From: a virus
Lineage: Duplodnaviria > Heunggongvirae > Uroviricota > Caudoviricetes
Length of the DNA: 36,559 nucleotides
Reading direction: 5' to 3' (one strand)
IMG/VR virus record: IMGVR_UViG_2724679237_000007
Coordinates: 1 to 36,559 of that record
In this document: positions 4,822 to 14,148 of the stretch, in pieces
Layout of the letters: each line of letters starts with the position of its first letter
Position numbering within the stretch: the first letter of the stretch is position 1
Position numbers and translations under genes: made by a program
Notes under the pieces: generated by a model
The model's database searches: none
What the model saw: only the letters and a program-made list of their open reading frames with translations
Told to the model about the DNA's origin: nothing

Positions 4822-5583
4822 TTAAGAGGAAGCGTTAGCTATTTGAGCTTGTGTAAATTCAAAACCTGAATGCTGTAACCGTTGCACCAGTCGAGGAACA
4901 GTTTCTCGTACATGGTCGTTGAAGTTCAGATATAAAATTCCGTTAGCATCAGAAGGTTGTTCTAAATGTTGTTTCTGCAAAATAGCTACGTTACTGCGCC
5001 CTAAGGACGAAAGAAGCATACCCATCTCGAGCACAACATTCTGTCTTGCACGAGGCTGGATTTCAGCTTCACCGGCGCGCTTTGAGTACCCCATATCGTC
5101 AGGTGTGAGAAGCACAATCCCGAATCGGGTAGCTGTTTGCCCCTGACCGATTTCACGTTCCAGCTCTTCAATAATTGTGAGCCCAGTCCCGCCAGTATTC
5201 TGCAAAATGAAATGGTCTGGCAACCCGAGTTTATGGAGTATTAGCTCAAGTTGTTCCTTTGCCGCATGATCATGGCCGTGAACAATGAAAATCTTTTTTG
5301 GAATCTCAGCAGGTTGTTCAACAGATTGAGGTGCCGCTGCGGGTGGCGTTCCTAAATGGGCCATTATTGCAGATTCAACATTGGGGCGTTCTTGAGGGTT
5401 ACCCTGAAGCTGAATAGTACGGGTAGCGTAAAGGTTAACAATTACACCATTCGCTAAACGATAGCAGTCACAAGCCCCACGCTGTTCATGGTCAAAATTG
5501 GTGAACCCGCACTCCCTTAAAAAGTCAGGAAATGATTCTCTTGGGTGTGGATAGGTGATCGGCATTTCAGTTAGTTCCTGCAT
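4822..5583 (-). CDS. TIR-like (Rossmann, nucleotide-binding) domain protein with an uncharacterised N-terminal domain; candidate defense effector
   Basis: 253 aa. C-terminal half KKIFIVHGHDHAAKEQLELILHKLGL...GIVLLTPDDMGY...ARQNVVLEMGMLL matches the prokaryotic TIR-like / SLOG-type pattern (vFIvHGhd...LTPDD). N-terminal ~80 aa has no family I recognise, followed by a Pro/Ala linker. Clearly lower GC than flanking genes. Confidence 0.6.
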   Translation of the reverse strand: MQELTEMPITYPHPRESFPDFLRECGFTNFDHEQRGACDCYRLANGVIVNLYATRTIQLQGNPQERPNVESAIMAHLGTPPAAAPQSVEQPAEIPKKIFIVHGHDHAAKEQLELILHKLGLPDHFILQNTGGTGLTIIEELEREIGQGQTATRFGIVLLTPDDMGYSKRAGEAEIQPRARQNVVLEMGMLLSSLGRSNVAILQKQHLEQPSDANGILYLNFNDHVRETVPRLVQRLQHSGFEFTQAQIANASS

Positions 5584-5647: not shown

Positions 5648-7711
5648 TCAATCTTTTCTGTAGTGGTACGCCTCGAAGCCGCCAGCGTTCAGCGGGATGT
5701 CGGGCGCCCATTCGGGGTTTGTGGAGAGCAGCGCGGAAAGCGCCGTATCGTTGAAATCGTCGGTGTCCGGCGCTTCGGTGATCACCTCATCGTGTACCGT
5801 CAGCACAATGCTGTAACCGGCATCCTCGATCAGCGGCATGTTCCCGGCCAGAACGTCGCGGGCGGCCGCCTGGGTGACGTTTTCCGCGAGCTTGCCGGAG
5901 TAGGTTTTAAGCCGTTGCCATTTGCGCGAGTAGGAATTAACGCCCCGGTAGGTGATGTCGCCGTCCTCGATCGTCGGTGACGGATAACAGACCGCGCGCC
6001 CGGACGGCAACTGGATGCGCAGCCAGGCACCATCGCGCCGGACTTTCAGATAACCACAACACAGGGTTCTTTTCGGGGTTGCAATGGCGGCGCGAACGGT
6101 GCGCTCAATCTCGTGCCAGAAATCGCAGGTAGCTGGGTGCGCCCGGCGCCACAGGCGCTTTAGCGAGTCACAAGCGATAAATACGCGCTCCGACAGTCCG
6201 TAGGTTACTTTGCGTTTGACCGATTCGTCATACCAGCTTTTCGCCTCGTGGATCACCTCACGGGGGATATTCGGCAGCGCGGCGTTCGCCAGTTCGTTGA
6301 GGTCGAGGCCGTAAACAAGGGCGAAGGTCAGGAATGCCGCGACGCCTCCGCCATATCCTAACCCGAGTTCCATTACTTTGCCGATCTGACGCTGGTATTT
6401 ATCAACATCGTCCGGCGAGATATTGAAGGCACGGGCATAGGCCAGTTTATACAAGTCCGGGCCGGTGCCCTCGTCGTACTCACGGAACGCGTCCAGCTTC
6501 CACTGTTCACCCGCCAGCCACGCCAGCATTCGCCCTTCGATATTTGACAGATCGCTAACCACCAGCTTTTTGCTTTCCGGCGCCATGATGCAGCCGCGTA
6601 ACGCTGAACTGGTCAGTTCCATGATGTTATTGAACAACAGATCGGCACATCCGGCTTTCAGGGCGTCGATACCGAAGTCTATTTGCTCCTGCGGCAGCGT
6701 TGGCCGACTGAGGTTTTGCGGCTGAAACAGCCGGCCCGCCCAGCGCCCTGTTCGTGATGCCCCGCAAAATTGCAGCGTACCGCGCAGGCGCCCGTCGTGG
6801 CTGACGCCTTTTATCAGCGTTTTGTATTTGCTGGTGCTGGTCATACTGGCCTGTAATCGGATCGCCAGCAGTTCTTTGACCGCCGGGGGTAAGTCCGGGT
6901 CGGCAATGCGGCGTTCGAGCGTCGATTTCTGCATGTCCGGCAATATCACGCCGTAGGATTCGACGATGTGTTTTAGCATGGCGTCGCGCTGTGTGGCCGC
7001 CTGGACTTCGCCGCCGGTCATTGCCTGCGTGCGTTTTGCCAGGCGCTTTTGCTCCTGGTCTACCGCTTCGACGGCCGCGTGCGCGAGCTGCACATCCATG
7101 CAGGCGCCACGGTCGTTAATCCGCTGGTCGCGGTGCCAGTGCGCCAGCTCGGCTCCCTGATAGTTCCACTTTGGCAGGCGCTTATGCACTTCGCGCATGG
7201 CCTCGATATCCAGCCCGGCGTATGCAACGAACCGCCGCCACTCTTCCGGGTGCGTTTTGCTGGTGGCCCGGCGCAGTTTGCTGTTTTTCGGTCGAGGCTT
7301 GCAGAACAGCTGGATTAGCGCCGTACCCCCTTTATCCTTCGCTTTGTCCTGCGGAACGCCCAGCACTTCACACAACGCGCCTAATGCGCCGGGGAGTCCG
7401 TGCGCCAGCGCCTGCACCATAGTATCGCGCCAGCGGGTGATATCGGGTGCCAGTTCCGGCATTGCATGGCGCAGCACCGTGCGGTCGAAATGTGAATTGT
7501 GCGCCCATACTTCTACCTCCGGTTTTTTGAGCGCGAGACGCAACTCCAGAGGTATTTTTTGGGTTTCGGTTAAGTCCCACACTTGTACGGGGGCGTCGTC
7601 GAGCGCCCAGGCGAACAGCATAACCTCGGCACCCTCTGAATACGCATGGGTCCCGTTTTTTATCGGCACTTCGGAGAAAGTTTCGAGGTCGAGATAAAGG
7701 CGTTTAGACAT
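5648..7711 (-). CDS. Family A DNA polymerase with 3'-5' exonuclease (T7 gp5-like)
   Basis: YLDLETFS (Exo I), [14 protein letters not shown] (motif A), [16 protein letters not shown] (motif B), VLTVHDEV (motif C). ATG at 7709-7711 has a GAGGTGG RBS; the track ORF starts at an upstream GTG (7726). Confidence 0.85.
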
Positions 7712-8201
7712 GGGGCCACCTCGCACCGGAAATAATCATACCCACCGCACGTCGTGATATTCCGTACCTACGACCAAGTTCAGTTTGTGAGACTGAATCG
7801 CCCAGCGTTTTTATCTCCCGAGCGATGGCCTCTGTAATTTTTGCCATTCCATTCTTTTCACCTCTATTATCGGGAAAAGTCAGGCGACCATTGCGAGCGA
7901 CTCGCTTCATATTTTCCTGACGGTCAACCCATTCAAGATTGCCGACGGTATTGTTTCTCTTGTCGCCATCGAGATGGTCAACTTCTGGTTTATTTTTGGC
8001 CGTCGGAAGAAAAGCAGTTGCGACTAGTCGATGTACAAATATGTTGCGAGAGATGCCGTTATCGCATAGCTTCGCATGCAGATACCCGTCTCTGTGTTTT
8101 GACGGTTTGAGAATGTGGTGGTGGATATTTCTAACTCTTCCCAAATTGCTGACCTCGTAACGGTCTTCAAATCCGGGTGCAGGTTTCCAAATTTCGGGCA
8201 T
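7704..8201 (-). CDS. HNH homing-type endonuclease (NUMOD4/HNH_3-like)
   Basis: [15 protein letters not shown]-terminal motif and [14 protein letters not shown] core. Start chosen at ATG 8199-8201 (GAGGA RBS, 6 nt spacing) rather than the track start at 8246. Confidence 0.8.
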
Positions 8202-8392
8202 AAATAGTCCTCGCGGGTGCTTTGCGAAAAGGGATGCTCTTTGCAAAACACCCGGCGCGTGGCCGGGTGGGTGGGTGTTTACGCTGTGGCTTCTTCGTCA
8301 GAAGGGAGGCCGATCATCTCGTTGAGCGTTTCGCGGCGTATCGCGGGCGGCAGCGGGCGGGCATAGCACCGTGAGGGACGCGCTTTCCGGGA

Positions 8393-8425
8393 ATAAAAAA
8401 GCCCGGCAGTGGAGTCTGACCGGGC
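8393..8425 (-). terminator. Rho-independent terminator (minus strand)
   Basis: Minus strand reads GCCCGGTCAG-actcca-CTGCCGGGC followed by TTTTTTATTC; about 9 bp stem. Confidence 0.6.
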
Positions 8426-8451
8426 AACAACTACACACAGCAATGGATTAT

Positions 8452-8547
8452 TCAGGGGGATGCGGTTAAAGCCGCGAGGTATTCCTCGAAACTTAAGGCT
8501 TCTTCGCCTTCATCCAGGCTATCGAAGTACGCTTCGTAATCATCCAT
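8452..8547 (-). CDS. Candidate 31-aa acidic micro-protein
   Basis: MDDYEAYFDSLDEGEEALSFEEYLAALTASP; GAGGAA RBS 5 nt upstream of the ATG; the terminator at 8393..8425 follows. Below the 60 aa track cutoff. Speculative. Confidence 0.3.
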   Translation of the reverse strand: MDDYEAYFDSLDEGEEALSFEEYLAALTASP

Positions 8548-8605
8548 CGTCTTTCCTCATTCAGTTCACTTTGGCGGTGCGATGGCCGGTGCTGATCCCC
8601 GGTAT

Positions 8606-8671
8606 GGCGTTCTGCGGGATTCGAACCCGCGTTTTCCGTCGGATCGTCCTGGGTCGCTAGACGAAGAACGC
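8606..8671 (-). ncRNA. tRNA-Glu-like element lacking a canonical anticodon arm (degenerate tRNA or tRNA-like RNA)
   Basis: Minus strand: GCGTTCT-TCGTCTAGCGACCCAGGAC-GATCCGACGGAAAAC-GCGGGTTCGAATCCCGC-AGAACGC-C. Perfect T-arm (GCGGG/TTCGAAT/CCCGC), 7-bp acceptor pairing, and a D-arm near-identical to E. coli tRNA-Glu (TTCGTCTAGAGGCCCAGGAC), but only ~15 nt where the 17-nt anticodon stem-loop plus variable loop should be. Confidence 0.45.
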
Positions 8672-9070
8672 CCGGCTACATGCATTTAGCCGCGCATCAG
8701 CCTGCGCATTCACCGCACCCCAAAGGGAACTTCGCCACACTTTCGCAGTGGCCGCGCTCATGCCCTTGAGTCGTCTGTCGCTCAGTCGCCGCTAATAACC
8801 GGTGCTCGTCTGGCTTGCGAACTGCTTTACCGGCACACCATCTTCATCGTTAACCCTCACCAGCGTGCGCTGCGGTTCGTACCCGCATCTGGCTACCCTC
8901 GTCGGGTATTCGGGGCAGCATTACAATTGCTGCACTGCCTTTCGGCTGCGGTCTGACCGCTTTACTTGTGCATGGTGGTTTCCTCCTTTGGTTGATTTTT
9001 TACTGACCCGTATTGCCGGCATCCTGCCTCGCCACGGTCCCGACGCATGGTTTTAAGTCGCGCCGTTCGA

Positions 9071-9110
9071 CTTGAATTCTAAATTGATTTTTGAATTCAA
9101 AAATGAATTT
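9071..9110. promoter_or_regulatory. Operator-like palindromic repeats (TTGAATTC / GAATTCAA), putative leftward promoter region
   Basis: cTTGAATTCtaaattgatttTTGAATTCAAaaatGAATTt; same half-site family as the cI-cro intergenic palindrome. Confidence 0.4.
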
Positions 9111-9154
9111 ATAGAAGCGGTAACACCTTGTCAATCCAAAAGTGAATTATTTTT

Positions 9155-9185
9155 AGAAAAAGAAAAGCCACTCAAAGGGTGGCCT
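9155..9185 (-). terminator. Rho-independent terminator downstream of the repressor gene
   Basis: Minus strand GCCAC-cctttga-GTGGC followed by TTTTCTTTTTCT. Confidence 0.55.
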
Positions 9186-9205
9186 TGTGATAAACGTGGC
9201 GGGTG

Positions 9206-9883
9206 CTACTCGGGCATCCAGAGCGACGATTTAGCGATCCCGGCAACGTACTGGATATGTACCACCTGGTCTTTTTGCAGGCGAACAGGTAAGTGATTTT
9301 CGTTGACAGGCATCAAGTGATAAGCCCCGTCGCGTTCGAACAAAAAAACCTTCACCATCACTTCCCCCTGCGCAGTGACCACCAGCACTTCATCTCCGGG
9401 GGTATAGCTATGACCAGGTTCGATGATGACGTACTCACCTTCTTTAATCCGGGGCATCATCGAGTCCCCCACGCATTTTAACGCGTAGGCGTTCTCGTCT
9501 TGCGAAGGCCAGTGTATATACCCGTCCCCGCTTCCTACCGGGTATTGCATTTCGCTCCAGTAACCGCCATGCCCAAGCTGGGTATTTCCCAAAACAGGAA
9601 CTCCTCTAAACCGTAAAGTATCGGGTTTCCCCGGGACGGAATGTTGTTGCTCCCCAGTCTTCGGCATGCTGGTTTCCATCAAATCGGGGACGCTTACCCT
9701 AAAAAAATCAGCTACCTGCTTTATGAGCGGGTACTTCGGTTCTTTGTTTTCCCCTGAAAGCAGCCTGTGCATGGTGGGCTGCGGAATGCGTATCTGCTTA
9801 GCCAGTTCGGTCACGTTTGGTATGCCGCGTTTCGCCATTAAGTAATTGATATTTGAAATAAGTTTTTCAGTAGTAAAGCCCAT
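9206..9883 (-). CDS. cI: CI-like repressor (HTH + S24 LexA-like peptidase domain)
   Basis: 225 aa; N-terminal HTH (NVTELAKQIRIPQPTMHRLL) and C-terminal S24 peptidase motifs (GDSMMP Ser, downstream Lys); divergent from the Cro-like gene. Confidence 0.85.
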   Translation of the reverse strand: MGFTTEKLISNINYLMAKRGIPNVTELAKQIRIPQPTMHRLLSGENKEPKYPLIKQVADFFRVSVPDLMETSMPKTGEQQHSVPGKPDTLRFRGVPVLGNTQLGHGGYWSEMQYPVGSGDGYIHWPSQDENAYALKCVGDSMMPRIKEGEYVIIEPGHSYTPGDEVLVVTAQGEVMVKVFLFERDGAYHLMPVNENHLPVRLQKDQVVHIQYVAGIAKSSLWMPE

Positions 9884-9912
9884 AGCGATACCTGTGGATT
9901 CGGGTTATTCAA

Positions 9913-9988
9913 GACTGAATATTCTATACTGAATATATTACGCTGGTATTGCATTCATTATTGAATTATTATTGAATTCAATAATGAA
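9913..9988. promoter_or_regulatory. Operator region of the cI/cro switch
   Basis: Direct repeat ACTGAATAT x2 (9913-9940) and a long inverted repeat ATTCATTATTGAATT / AATTCAATAATGAAT (9953-9988) in the 130-bp divergent intergenic region. Confidence 0.5.
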
Positions 9989-10013
9989 TTTACAACCTTT
10001 GAGGATATGACAT

Positions 10014-10214
10014 ATGCGAACGCTGACCCCAAAAGAAATCATCGCGTCGCTGAACGACACAGGGCTTACGCAGGTAGACATTAAGAACCGGACCGGTATC
10101 AGCCAGGCTTCAATTAGCCGTATCGCGTCAGGTAAAAATAGGGACCCGCGTTTTTCGGTTGTTCGTGCGCTGGAAGCCTTGTATCAGGAAGTGACCGAAA
10201 CGAAAAAGGCGTAA
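10014..10214 (+). CDS. cro: Cro-like HTH transcriptional regulator
   Basis: 66 aa; first gene of the rightward operon opposite cI; HTH-like TGISQASISRIASGK; GAGGA RBS. Confidence 0.65.
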   Translation: MRTLTPKEIIASLNDTGLTQVDIKNRTGISQASISRIASGKNRDPRFSVVRALEALYQEVTETKKA

Positions 10215-10217
10215 CCC

Positions 10218-12521
10218 ATGGAAATACGCTATTCAACGGGGCAGTACGCCAGAGACGCCAGGCCTAAGCCGGGTATCTGTAAGAGCTTTGGGTCGTTCTA
10301 CTGGACGGTGCGTGGCCTGCGTCGGGCCATTGGCATCGAGCCAGAAGATACGCCGAACCAGATGCGTATCAAAAAGTCCCGTCTGCCCTATATCTGGCAC
10401 TCAATGCGGGATGTTGCAAACGGACGTAATGCGCTCAATGCTGGCGATCGCGATGCGCTGTTCCTCGATATGGACGGCTGCGACGAACCCACATGGCAGG
10501 CGCTGCGCAATGCGCTAACTTGCTTTTCCTGCTTCACCTACTCAACCCCCAGCCATCTGCACCCTGCCGTAAACGGCGAGCAGCGCTGGCGTATCTGCTT
10601 TGAGCTTGATCGCCCTGTTACGCCCGAAGAATACAAACGCCTTGGCCCGTCGCTGGAAAACTGGCTGATAGACTGTATCAGCCTGCTGGACGACTATGCC
10701 GTTAAGTGGGATCAGTCTGTCTATAACCCCGACCACATGGTTTACGGGCCTGACGAAAGCGCAGTGTTCGAGTGTTTCGAGGGGTCACCTGTCACCGTGG
10801 ATATTCTGCTGGCCAGCACAACGGAAATTACCTCACCTGAAAAAGCGCCGTCCGTTGACCACGATGATTTGTCGCGTGCTGTCGATCTGAACGGCATCAG
10901 TCACCAGACCTTCGACGACCTGCGCGAGGTGATGTGGCATCCGGCTGTGCTGGCTGACGCCCGTCCGAAAAGTGAGAAGCATGACGCATGGGCATCGATG
11001 GGGAATCGTCTGGCATGGTTCAAAGGTACCGACTGGGAAGATGCCGCGCGGCAACTATGGATCGACTGGTCAACCGCAGGCGGCGGCAGCGAAGAAGATA
11101 TCGCGGTAGCTGAAACGCGCTGGGATGAGAATAAGCTGAAAGCAGACCGTACCGGTTACCAGGCTATTTTTGCCCATGCGCAGAAATCTGGTGTCGCTAA
11201 CCCGGCGGTTGACCGTCTGCGTGGTTCTGTTGCCAGCGTGGACGATTTCGACGATTTGACAAATACCGACATAGCCGAGCCTGCGCCGTTACCGGCTTTT
11301 CGTAGAGATAATAAGGGAGACATCGAAGCGATCCTTGATAATGTTGTGCTGGCTCTGATGCGTCCGGATTTTACGGGTGTAGCCATACGCTACGACATAT
11401 TCAGGGATGCGCTTATGCTGGCACCGGCGGAAACTGATGGCTGGCGTGCTTTCGGGGATGAGGATTATAGCGAGCTTCGGATACTGCTTTCTCGTCGCAG
11501 TTTTAAAGAAGTTAGTAAAGAGTTGATGCGTGATGCGGTGTTTACGGTAGCAAAACGGCAGCCGTTCGACTCGGCGACAACCTGGCTGAACGGGCTGGAG
11601 TGGGACGGCGTGCCGCGCATCGAATCTTTCTACCATACGCACTTTGGTACCGCTGATACGACGTACACCCGGGCGGTGTCCCTGTACATGTGGACGGCGC
11701 TGGCGGGCAGGGTGCTGGAGTCCGGCGTTAAAGCTGATATGGTGCCGATCCTCGTCGGCGCTCAGGGACTGCGTAAATCAGCTGGGATTGCAGCTCTTTC
11801 GCCAGATCCGGAATTCTTTGCCGATATTTCGTTTGCTGATAAAGATGACGACCTCGCGCGCAAGATGCGAGGCTGTTTAGTCGCGGAGATAAGTGAGTTG
11901 CGTGGCCTGAACACAAAAGATCTTGAGTCAATAAAGGCATGGGTAACGCGAACCCACGATAAATGGGTTCCGAAATTTAAGGAGTTTACGACCATCTTTG
12001 CTCGTCGTGGTATTCCTTTGGGGTCCTCTAACGAAGATGAATTCCTCGCGGATAAGACCGGTAACCGCCGCTGGTTGCCTGTAGACGTCATCAACATGGT
12101 TGATACAGATGCTATTAAGCGCGATTTACCGCTGCTGTGGGCGGAGGCCCGCGAGACGTTTAAGCGCCTCGGCGGCATCCAGTTCCGCGATGCTGAGCGC
12201 CTCGGCGCAACTGTCCACGAGCAGTACACCATTAAGGACGCCTGGCTCGAAACGGTCGAGAAATGGCTCGATACCCCTGACCTGATGACTAACGACATTC
12301 CGCGAAATTGCGAATTTTTACGCGCAAGCGACGTTTTACGGGAGGCGATCGGCCTTGACCCGCGGAATATCGGAAAGCGTGAAGAAATGCGAATTAGCAA
12401 TGTTTTGCAAAATTGCGGTTATAAGCGCGAAACACGACGTGTTGAAGGCAAGTTAATGAAGGTTTGGATAGCAGCGTTACCACCTGTTACCACCTGTAAG
12501 GGCAAGGTGGTAACAAATTAA
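10218..12521 (+). CDS. DNA primase (primase-polymerase-like N-terminus with VirE/P4-type P-loop C-terminal domain)
   Basis: 767 aa; C-terminal ILVGAQGLRKSAG (Walker A) and VirE-like region; lies between cro and the iteron array. Confidence 0.7.
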   Translation: MEIRYSTGQYARDARPKPGICKSFGSFYWTVRGLRRAIGIEPEDTPNQMRIKKSRLPYIWHSMRDVANGRNALNAGDRDALFLDMDGCDEPTWQALRNALTCFSCFTYSTPSHLHPAVNGEQRWRICFELDRPVTPEEYKRLGPSLENWLIDCISLLDDYAVKWDQSVYNPDHMVYGPDESAVFECFEGSPVTVDILLASTTEITSPEKAPSVDHDDLSRAVDLNGISHQTFDDLREVMWHPAVLADARPKSEKHDAWASMGNRLAWFKGTDWEDAARQLWIDWSTAGGGSEEDIAVAETRWDENKLKADRTGYQAIFAHAQKSGVANPAVDRLRGSVASVDDFDDLTNTDIAEPAPLPAFRRDNKGDIEAILDNVVLALMRPDFTGVAIRYDIFRDALMLAPAETDGWRAFGDEDYSELRILLSRRSFKEVSKELMRDAVFTVAKRQPFDSATTWLNGLEWDGVPRIESFYHTHFGTADTTYTRAVSLYMWTALAGRVLESGVKADMVPILVGAQGLRKSAGIAALSPDPEFFADISFADKDDDLARKMRGCLVAEISELRGLNTKDLESIKAWVTRTHDKWVPKFKEFTTIFARRGIPLGSSNEDEFLADKTGNRRWLPVDVINMVDTDAIKRDLPLLWAEARETFKRLGGIQFRDAERLGATVHEQYTIKDAWLETVEKWLDTPDLMTNDIPRNCEFLRASDVLREAIGLDPRNIGKREEMRISNVLQNCGYKRETRRVEGKLMKVWIAALPPVTTCKGKVVTN

Positions 12522-12956: not shown

Positions 12957-13379
12957 ATGCGCAGAGATATGCAACTTGTTCTGGAGCGGTGGGGGCGGTG
13001 GGCTGCGAGCGAGGAATACTGTTCAATGGTTGACTGGCCCTCGATGTCGGTGACACCTCAACGTGTACCGTTCAGCGGAAAGCCCGGCTGCACCGACGAG
13101 GACGGCGCGGCAATTGACACCTGCATCGCGCATATGAGTATGGTTTGTCCGCATGACGACCTGCTGATCCTTGGCTTACGTTTCATAGGCGGTTTATCAA
13201 CGCGTTCAATCGCCGAGGCAATGCAGTGCAGCCACCTTAGTGTAAGAACGTCCCTGAGGGCATCTGAGGCGTTTTTATCGGGGGCTCTGACCCTGCAGGG
13301 GATCAGACTGGATATGGACTACGAAGTTGCATTACCTGAAAACGTTGTGTGCGCACAAAAACATGTGTTATGGTTGTAG
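12957..13379 (+). CDS. Late-gene antiterminator (Q-like)
   Basis: 140 aa starting MRRDMQLVLERWGRWAA, resembling the conserved N-terminus of one Q antiterminator family; sits directly upstream of lysis and virion genes, followed by a terminator. Confidence 0.55.
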   Translation: MRRDMQLVLERWGRWAASEEYCSMVDWPSMSVTPQRVPFSGKPGCTDEDGAAIDTCIAHMSMVCPHDDLLILGLRFIGGLSTRSIAEAMQCSHLSVRTSLRASEAFLSGALTLQGIRLDMDYEVALPENVVCAQKHVLWL

Positions 13380-13406
13380 CGTCTGGAATTGTATTCCGAC
13401 TTCTGA

Positions 13407-13440
13407 AAGGCTCCACTAACCCCGGAGCTTTTTTCTTTTC
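13407..13440 (+). terminator. Rho-independent terminator (candidate tR'-like)
   Basis: aaGGCTCC-actaacccc-GGAGCTTTTTTCTTTT immediately after the Q-like gene. Confidence 0.55.
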
Positions 13441-13773
13441 GCCTTCCTGGGGAAAAGTTAATAAAACAGGGCTTTCGCTGCGAAAAAACGCTATGCAATT
13501 TGCACCCTGTTTTATGCACGATTTATTCACTCGTTTTTGTCCGTTTCGGACCACTTAACCCGCGTAAATACGTCATTCGCTGCAATCCGGCGGCGAGTGC
13601 CGATCGCGTGGTTCTTAATGTACATTATGTTAAATAAGGCCATTTTTTAACAAATTATCACCGTAGTCTACGGTTCGTCCGCAGGTTTGGCCATTGCCGG
13701 GTAGTGCAATATTTCCACTCACATTTTTCACATAACGGCCCGGCGTTCGCGTCTGCTGGCCGGGGATATTTAT

Positions 13774-14148
13774 ATGCCTAATTCACCGCCAACGCTGGCG
13801 TTAATCCTTGAAATGTACCGCCAGCACAAGACCCCGTTCGACCTGTTTCTGCTGGTGCTGGCGGGTGTGTTCGTCCGCATTTTTTACTGGGGCGGTAAAT
13901 TGCGCGAAGCGTGTGGCGATGTGCTCATCGGCACCACCATCATGATTTTCGTTGCAGCGCGGGTGCCAAATATCGTGCTGAATCTGCCGGAAATTGGCGC
14001 AGTGACGGTCAATCACAACGAACTGGCATTCGTCATCGGGATGCTGGGGTACAAAGGCTTTAAAGAAGTGGCGTTCTGGGTGCTGAAAAAACGGTTCGGT
14101 ATCGACGTTCAGGCGCTCAGGCAGAAAAAACAGGAGAGCAATCAATGA
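13774..14148 (+). CDS. Holin (putative)
   Basis: 124 aa with hydrophobic transmembrane segments and a charged C-terminus; immediately precedes and overlaps the endolysin start. Confidence 0.6.
   Translation: MPNSPPTLALILEMYRQHKTPFDLFLLVLAGVFVRIFYWGGKLREACGDVLIGTTIMIFVAARVPNIVLNLPEIGAVTVNHNELAFVIGMLGYKGFKEVAFWVLKKRFGIDVQALRQKKQESNQ

Follow-up and report, generated by a model that had tools for sequence, protein, structure and literature searches.

Very short translated frames and conserved folded RNAs have both been described from phages. The barI and barII minigenes of phage lambda have a strong Shine-Dalgarno (SD) sequence and a two- or three-codon open reading frame (ORF) ending in UAA, and are transcribed from PL. 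The toxicity of minigenes requires that they be translated again and again without departing from the 30S subunit (PMC2490762), and in the case of bar it is governed by which sense codon comes last and by a limiting supply of Pth (PMC2490762). Bacterial RNase P has hairpin substrates that are read by a stem plus NCCA, namely pre-4.5S RNA, the M3 RNA of phi80, and the C4 and CI RNAs (PMC5499578; PMC11143913), and GOLLD and ROOL are large, ornate, conserved RNAs found in prophages and sometimes beside tRNAs (PMC5737381). Here we describe a cassette of ~255 nt that lies downstream of the repressor gene in IMG/VR virus record IMGVR_UViG_2724679237_000007 (positions 1 to 36,559, the 36,559 nt stretch referred to below as the window). 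The cassette (8734..8989, minus strand) consists of an SD, a start codon, zero to two sense codons, and a stop codon, followed by a pseudoknotted RNA with helices P1 to P9.

The cassette represents a new family of structured non-coding RNA that is widespread in enterobacterial phages and prophages. It is like barI and barII in that a PL transcript holds a strong SD before an ORF of two or three codons closed by UAA, but its codons vary freely or are absent, and its minigene is physically and evolutionarily joined to a conserved folded RNA from which it keeps a fixed distance. Like GOLLD and ROOL it is an ornate prophage RNA that is occasionally near tRNAs, although there is no match to either in sequence or structure, it is smaller (~230 nt), and it is found in the Enterobacterales rather than in the Firmicutes and others; GOLLD and ROOL also have not been described with an SD-start-stop arrangement. 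Leader peptides, upstream ORF attenuators, and start-stop ORFs similarly place a very short ORF before an RNA structure that a ribosome can influence, but the cassette has no conserved regulatory codons, no terminator/antiterminator alternative, and no constant downstream gene. We know of no earlier structured non-coding RNA that has an SD-start-stop minigene as a conserved part locked in position. Hundreds of enterobacterial prophages, Stx2c-converting phages, mEp213, and mEp237 among them, carry a complex RNA fold that has escaped annotation, and a curiosity of the bar minigenes becomes a testable design principle in which translation serves something besides protein making.

The 0.8 kb interval in which the cassette lies is the leader of the PL early-left operon, not decayed coding DNA, and is an assembly of separately mobile RNA modules. 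We inspected the sequence over 7800-10400, where the sense strand is the minus strand (as it is for all window features below unless noted), and the modules are ordered PL and its OL operators, a putL-like segment, the cassette, a tRNA-acceptor-like module, a gene for a 31-residue protein, and a terminator resembling the 3′ end of RprA. Conservation across many independent phage loci is seen separately for the minigene, for the folded RNA, and for the acceptor/CCA stem.

BLAST searches match 8964..8691 to unannotated intergenic DNA of Stx2c phages, mEp213, mEp237, Hafnia phage yong1, Klebsiella phages RothC/D, Providencia phage PSTCR7lys, and phiKO2, and the matched loci examined each open with an SD and an ATG, which one to three codons separate from a stop, and then have a hairpin (GCGGnnAGACCGC). 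Two motif scans of IMG/VR returned more than 119 loci each. A hidden Markov model (HMM) was built from 19 diverse seeds (21 were chosen, and two without the anchor motif were dropped), and nhmmer then gave 201 matches, of which 154 are full length, 127 are unique, and 67 are below 90% identity; these 67 were aligned with MAFFT (alignment A1). A scan of species-representative genomes added 13 further true members, all in the Enterobacterales (including Citrobacter, Enterobacter, Pectobacterium, Rahnella, Ewingella, and Xenorhabdus), after 107 chance matches to an 18-mer in GC-rich genomes had been removed with nhmmer. The HMM has no second match within the window. Rfam 15 at gathering score reports nothing on the window or on 11 homologous loci (GOLLD, ROOL, introns, ribozymes, and riboswitches included), and at E≤10 over 1.1 kb it reports nothing on the core or the acceptor-like module. 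The cassette is unannotated in every RefSeq E. coli match listed and in most phage records, the remainder having only a 'hypothetical protein' annotated across it. A search of open-access papers found no description of the cassette; it is not described in Weinberg 2017 or Narunsky 2024, and a preprint on Pas small RNAs treats other loci.

The structured core spans 8734..8960. Its nested helices were derived from A1 and RNAalifold, and a long-range CCC/GGG helix and an H-type pseudoknot were added by inspection and a covariation scan. P1 (8960..8948) is followed by P2 (8946..8937), which has a GAAA loop, and P3 (8933..8915), which has the loop GUnnUGA; the CCC at 8914..8912 pairs with the GGG at 8856..8854, P4 is at 8907..8895, and P5 (8892..8860) holds P5a. 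The pseudoknot joins 8870..8865 with 8838..8833, and the remaining helices are P6/P7 (8833..8799), P8 (8770..8757), and P9 (8752..8734), which is capped by a GNRA loop. On A1, 94.6% of cells are paired in this structure, compared with 29–37% when partners are slid by 1–3 columns, and compensatory double changes are present at 30 of the 49 pairs (285 cells). The covariation score is 0.294 versus 0.02–0.06 for the slid versions, and none of 500 shuffles reaches the observed values. The long-range pair 107:163 is C-G in 43 sequences and U-A in 23, and the pseudoknot occurs in at least five complementary variants (CATACC/GGTATG, CACAC/GTGTG, TACGC/GCGTA, CACGC/GCGTG, and GCGCAC/GTGTGC), with a complementarity of 4.45 for matched loop/partner pairs against 3.93±0.06 for mismatched ones. 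Many unpaired nucleotides in the junctions and loops of the core are invariant.

Core lengths are spread evenly over 0, 1, and 2 modulo 3, of 293 indels counted against the window, 283 have lengths not divisible by three, and the frame is open across the core in 13 of 67 antisense and one of 67 sense cases; a protein gene on either strand was rejected on these lengths, indels, and broken frames. A group I intron has a superficially similar order of crossing helices, but the core has no P8 equivalent and no Rfam match, and a kink-turn or C/D-box reading of GUAAUGAUG...CUGA was dropped, as CUGA is CCGA in most members. Three core copies, in loci L131, L170, and L178, have a different 5′ end with no SD-minigene and an altered P1, and might be used as natural controls that lack the minigene.

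At the 5′ edge of the fold in the window, the SD and minigene (8962..8989) read AAAGGAGGAAACCACC ATG CAC AAG TAA, with GGAGG at 8986..8982 and AUG CAC AAG UAA at 8973..8962, the AGGAGG being separated from the start by 9 nt. A start codon and an in-frame stop are kept in 126 of 135 distinct 5′ ends, and 124 5′ ends have an SD motif, mostly spaced at 6–9 nt. The 126 start codons are ATG (116), TTG (8), or GTG (2), the stop codons are TAA (95), TAG (24), or TGA (7), and there are no sense codons between them in 22, one in 21, and two in 79. The start is 12–13 nt before P1 in 119 of the 126, with the stop ahead of P1 or at it. The codon strings fall into 38 kinds, made of common codons (AAG, CAC, GUG, CAA, CAG), and the bare start-stop forms (AUG-UAA/UAG/UGA) would yield no peptidyl-tRNA beyond fMet-tRNA. 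A spanin-like gene on the upstream side terminates within or at the minigene in a few loci, and L204 has no ATG, yet its upstream ORF stops 9 nt before P1. The variability of the codons together with the L204 case indicates that the conserved property is the initiation and termination of translation at the 5′ border of the fold, and not the peptide. The minigene is a genuinely selected feature and not a chance succession of SD, ATG, and stop. Toeprints of initiating ribosomes lie at about +15/16, and the helicase site of the mRNA channel is near +11; given this channel geometry, a helix at +13/+14 is as close as a helix can be without being melted by the initiating ribosome.

The cassette is found in a variety of contexts. 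Phage phi80 and two cassette loci (L165 and L209) have an identical 80 nt upstream (...ACTGGCAGGGAGTTGGCGCTGA) and are identical again after CCAAAG; the SD-minigene-core lies between these shared stretches in L165 and L209 and is absent in phi80. Elsewhere the cassette is located after nutL and before N-like genes (Stx2c phage, mEp213, yong1), after rexAB, directly after a tR′-type terminator downstream of Q (mEp237, RothC), after the lysis genes (vB_EcoS-733R5, phiKO2), or after put (the window and L117 only). Among the 67 loci, cI is upstream in 35 and an N-like gene downstream in 16, and no gene family accompanies the cassette as a potential partner across contexts. The genes that follow it are unrelated (N-like, HNH, YdfB-like, holin, tRNA, and terminase genes), and the distance to the next start ranges from ~50 to >400 nt. 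In RothC it is followed by tRNA-Ile and tRNA-Arg, and in the window and L151 by tRNA-like folds, such adjacency being only occasional (RothC, L151, the window). Antisense ORFs of at least 50 codons overlap the cassette in 54 of the 67 loci. Klebsiella phage RothC (L222, 2416-2752) has two 'hypothetical protein' coding sequences on the strand opposite the cassette, which are probably annotation artefacts of a conserved, stop-poor antisense sequence.

Downstream of the core is a tRNA-acceptor-like module (8569..8725) that begins with CUUUGG and a 9 bp stem (GGUGCGGUG..., with G+1 at 8719), continues through a variable insert to the discriminator G8575, CCA (8574..8572), and AAG, and is followed by the SD of the next gene. 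Such a module is present 2–16 nt after P9 in 56 of 155 loci, with interiors of 40–270 nt. Across 18 distinct stems, 96.3% of cells are paired, compared with 34–55% when slid, and seven of the nine pairs show double changes. Without the cassette, the module forms the leader of N-like genes in HK620, HK630, HK140, CUS-3, mEpX2, epsilon34, and others, and phi80 (L344, 8960..8830, minus strand) has the same acceptor-like stem, with N-CCA-AAG just before the N SD, but without the core. At L151, right after the cassette (11356-11426, plus strand), ARAGORN predicts a 71 nt tRNA-Ser(tga), which scores below the Rfam tRNA gathering score and whose acceptor stem and NCCA are homologous to the module; this suggests that the module derives from, or is replaceable by, a tRNA. 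In L025 a 285 nt module interior appears to hold a short ORF, showing the site to be permissive for insertion.

The module shares with the hairpin substrates of RNase P (pre-4.5S, phi80 M3, P1/P7 C4, and P4 CI) a long covarying stem, an unpaired N, CCA, and a location in a phage leader; it differs in its hugely variable interior, in its near-canonical tRNA in one locus, and in the second tRNA-like fold in the window. From its stem and NCCA we infer that the module is a candidate RNase P processing signal, by analogy with those hairpin-plus-RCCA substrates. The phi80 module may be the source of the classical RNase P substrate M3 RNA. The leader of lambda N is processed by RNase III, and the analogy suggests that RNase P may play this role in N leaders of the phi80/HK620 type. 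No prior description of the acceptor/CCA module was found in literature searches that were not aimed at it specifically.

In the window the module interior contains two hairpins and a second tRNA-like fold (8605..8671), which appears in the minimum free energy (MFE) structure with a 7 bp acceptor, a D-like arm, and a canonical T-arm (GCGGGUUCGAAUCCCGC), and with neither an anticodon arm nor CCA. The MFE fold of 8545-8745 has a z-score of -3.0, and Rfam matches the T-arm (8614-8631, 18 nt) to the tmRNA model with E=7.5e-5. No exact copy of the inner fold is present in IMG/VR. A tRNA gene was rejected, as ARAGORN reports none in the window, the Rfam tRNA score is not reached, and the anticodon arm is absent, and a tmRNA gene was rejected, as ARAGORN is negative and Rfam gives only the T-arm. 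The transcript does resemble tmRNA in its type of T-arm, its acceptor stem with NCCA, its pseudoknotted RNA, and its short UAA-ended frame, but the frame of the cassette has an SD and AUG and lies 5′ of all else, and the acceptor halves are local.

Upstream of the cassette, PL (9106..9134) has a -35 TTGACA, a 17 nt spacer, and a -10 TAAATT, agreeing with 10 of 12 consensus positions in a promoter scan, and sits relative to putL as PL does in HK022-type phages. The OL operators (9076..9111) form a palindrome around TGAATTCA that is 95% complementary, and their sequence recurs in the cI-cro spacer as a direct copy (9957-9992) at 81%. The segment 9071..9003 is, as judged from sequence homology, a putL-type antiterminator RNA of the kind known from HK022. 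BLAST against phage records matches 9074..8996 to the annotated putL of HK022, HK75, and O276, with 81% identity over ~72 nt, and a three-way alignment of the segment with HK022-type putL and putR shows that all blocks invariant between putL and putR are kept (CGAACGGC, GTCGGG, GGCG, AGGATG, CAAT). Stem differences from HK022 are compensatory, for example GTCG...CGAC versus GACG...CGTC, in a comparison of three sequences only. The MFE fold of the segment contains two hairpins with z = -0.03 relative to shuffles; there is no Rfam model for put and no Rfam match to the segment. With put starting at ~9071 and the PL -10 ending at 9106, put falls within the first ~100 nt of the PL transcript, just 3′ of PL as in HK022, and no N-like protein is encoded beside it, as would be expected of a put phage. 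The setting differs from HK022 in that the window is a prophage of non-lambdoid replication with PolA, a VapE primase, and a TIR protein. Among the 67 cassette loci, put is present only in the window and L117.

The 31-residue acidic protein gene (8452..8547; MDDYEAYFDSLDEGEEALSFEEYLAALTASP) has its own SD and is a real small early gene. Its product matches small early proteins of K1E/SP6-like phages (K1E gp1-like) and proteins annotated as 'YdfB' in tblastn searches, belongs to no Pfam family, and has a 34-residue homologue 3′ of the cassette in other loci. The gene is followed by a 3′ untranslated region and terminator (8391..8451; stem 8426..8401, U-run 8400..8395) that resemble the last ~47–50 nt of RprA, with CCCCUGA...AUUGCUGUGUGUAGU..UUGCCC preceding the terminator and AUUGCUGUGUGUAGU being an identical 15-mer. 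As a member of the RprA family (RF00034) it scores 32.8 bits (E = 0.092), below the gathering score of 70, with only the 3′ ~50 nt alike. A similar RprA-like stretch is present in only one E. coli genome. The 3′ part of RprA is a functional processed form, RprAproc (PMC9262595), and 8391-8500 may be a phage-borne mimic of the RprA 3′ end.

We favor, with moderate confidence, an explanation in which the interval is a PL leader of RNA modules that makes a ribosome-parked, insulated RNA of the lytic cycle, followed by an RNase P site and the 31-residue early gene. In a lysogen, cI would repress PL at OL. The put RNA, transcribed first, would modify RNA polymerase in cis so that it reads through 8426..8395 into the HNH, DNA polymerase, and helicase genes, as expected from the homology to HK022 putL. 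The SD-AUG-(0–2 codons)-stop would position a ribosome such that P1, beginning at +13/+14, is just outside the mRNA entry channel, and an ORF of no more than three codons may let the contact between SD and anti-SD persist, with the ribosome held or rapidly recycled. A parked or recycling ribosome would insulate the fold from an upstream nut, put, terminator, or gene end, and would also protect its 5′ edge, such that the same RNA could function whichever lytic, antiterminated transcript contains it. The folded RNA would be the functional part, presumably acting in trans as RNA during lytic growth, with the translation apparatus as a possible target. By analogy, RNase P would cut at the acceptor-like module and part the RNA on its 5′ side from the message that follows. 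The cassette is available in cultivable phages, its size suits SHAPE probing and cryo-electron microscopy with 70S ribosomes, and it is easy to delete.

Several observations weigh against this explanation. Nine of the 135 5′ ends have no clear start-stop, and L131, L170, and L178 differ at the 5′ end, so the minigene is not absolutely required. A terminating ribosome would melt P1 where there are two sense codons and would not do so at a bare start-stop, and a single, simple role for P1 is therefore doubtful. Since polymerase in its antiterminated state is already resistant to Rho, the minigene cannot be there to protect against polarity. The core occurs without the module in mEp237, and the module without the core in HK620 and phi80, so their coupling is optional. 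The putative CUUUGG/CCAAAG pairing between leader and trailer of the module shows no variation, and it would mask the CCA recognized by RNase P. The assignment of put has homology only as its basis.

A second possibility, which we regard as tentative, is that the cassette is a ribosome-docking RNA, in which SD-AUG-stop clamps a ribosome and sets the pseudoknotted fold against the mRNA entry site of the 30S subunit, where it would act on that ribosome (by sequestering, marking, or re-programming it in the course of lytic growth) or would gauge the translation capacity of the host by ribosome occupancy. If so, the cassette would define a new phage RNA class that works through a built-in, non-coding translation event and is coupled in many phages to a tRNA-acceptor mimic through which it is released.

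It is rather unlikely that the cassette is a cis-regulatory leader similar to a riboswitch or attenuator, with the fold binding a ligand or protein, the mini-ORF reporting on translation, and the next gene (typically N) controlled in its translation or stability. The many invariant unpaired nucleotides in junctions and loops are in keeping with ligand or protein binding, P1 abuts the ribosome site, where translation and folding could compete, and an N-like gene with its own SD is directly downstream in 16 of the 67 loci. However, the downstream genes are otherwise unrelated and of no constant class, they start at widely differing distances (~50 to >400 nt) often with other modules interposed, and there is no conserved expression platform, such as a terminator or an SD-sequestering helix, 3′ of P9.

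Self-processing, by a ribozyme or as an RNase target, would cut the leader, as RNase III does that of lambda N, and detach the 5′ RNA that is tethered to RNA polymerase through nut or put from the message. The cassette is placed behind nut, put, or qut elements and ahead of the first gene, which would suit such a role, as would its complex pseudoknotted core with invariant junction nucleotides and the frequent adjacency of an acceptor/CCA stem like those read by RNase P. We nonetheless think it improbable, as no Rfam ribozyme family matches even at E≤10, the cassettes that follow lysis genes have no nut or put nearby, and the SD-start-stop is left unexplained.

The sequence-only reading of this DNA had compared the minigene to those of the lambda bar regions, which sequester peptidyl-tRNA; in its full form, this comparison would have a toxic minigene starving the host of a tRNA, with the GC-rich RNA being incidental. 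An SD followed by a two- or three-codon ORF and UAA in a PL transcript is as in bar, and a short ORF beside a strong SD favors the repeated translation without leaving the 30S subunit on which toxicity depends (PMC2490762). This explanation is very unlikely, however, in that the codons are unconserved (38 variants across the 126 5′ ends, made of common codons), 22 of the 126 are start-stops with no sense codon, the downstream RNA covaries and is far more conserved than the ORF, and a free-standing minigene would need no fixed distance between its start and P1. That a protein gene has decayed or been wrongly called here, on the minus strand or as the 84-codon plus-strand ORF at 8802..9056, can be dismissed in spite of the common antisense ORFs and the 'hypothetical protein' annotations in RothC, since the lengths, indels, and broken frames described above are not those of a coding sequence and the substitutions in helices are compensatory.

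Other elements of the sequence-only reading hold up to varying degrees. The interval is GC-rich, as it had stated (0.56–0.60 over 8450-9050 versus 0.43–0.54 in the flanks), and the terminators that it placed at either end are present. The one after the cI-like gene (9164..9186) is recovered by a terminator scan as an 8 bp stem and T-run, and the one at the leftward end (8426..8395) is a hairpin and U-run that we read from the sequence, with a terminator stem also in the Rfam RprA alignment; the simple scan missed it, its loop being 14 nt. The reading was also right on the operator-like repeats, on the tRNA-like fold (although ARAGORN calls no tRNA), and on the 31-residue ORF with its own SD, and the three-codon minigene is there, with an exact span of 8989..8962 and the start coordinate originally given being one base off. 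The covariation across homologous prophages that had been named as a check on an RNA function is found for the core, the pseudoknot, and the acceptor stem. The claim that no minus-strand ORF of 40 codons or more is present is not strictly true, as there is a 44-codon ORF with a TTG start at 9000..9134, but this overlies the promoter, operators, and put and is not credible; on the plus strand there are ORFs of 83–84 codons at 8409..8660 and 8802..9056. Of the suggestion that the interval is a regulatory or toxic RNA locus, the RNA locus stands and the minigene is a selected feature, but the 31-residue ORF is a real gene and toxicity is unsupported. The putL homology, the ~230 nt pseudoknotted RNA, and the acceptor-stem/CCA module had not been recognized. 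Ordinary genes at the homologous position had been expected to signal simple decay, and they do occur in the related phage vB_EcoM-611R5, which has 4.8 kb of other genes between the repressor and polymerase genes; this marks the position as a variable cargo site and does not imply decay, as the RNA modules are covarying, conserved families.

The cI-like repressor gene (9206..9883) encodes a protein with Peptidase_S24 and helix-turn-helix (HTH) domains, and neighboring genes encode a Cro-like HTH protein and a VapE-type primase, and, leftward, a NUMOD4/HNH_3 endonuclease, a family-A DNA polymerase, and a TIR protein. The Q antiterminator gene is at 12957..13379, and an intergenic gap of ~400 nt at its 3′ side (13380-13774, plus strand) is the expected place of PR′, qut, and tR′. 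The TIR-domain protein gene (4822-5583) lies within the early-left replication operon and adjoins the DNA polymerase gene; its product matches the TIR domain of CAP12/Pycsar effectors (E = 2.6e-31), and the gene is also present in the homologous phages vB_EcoM-606R2 and vB_EcoM-611R5. The NUMOD4/HNH_3 homing endonuclease gene (7704-8201) is free-standing, with the RNA unit on one side and the polymerase gene on the other. Genes for HNH endonucleases also occur 3′ of the cassette in RothC, vB_EcoS-733R5, and three IMG/VR loci, and such endonucleases might use a conserved RNA gene as their homing target.

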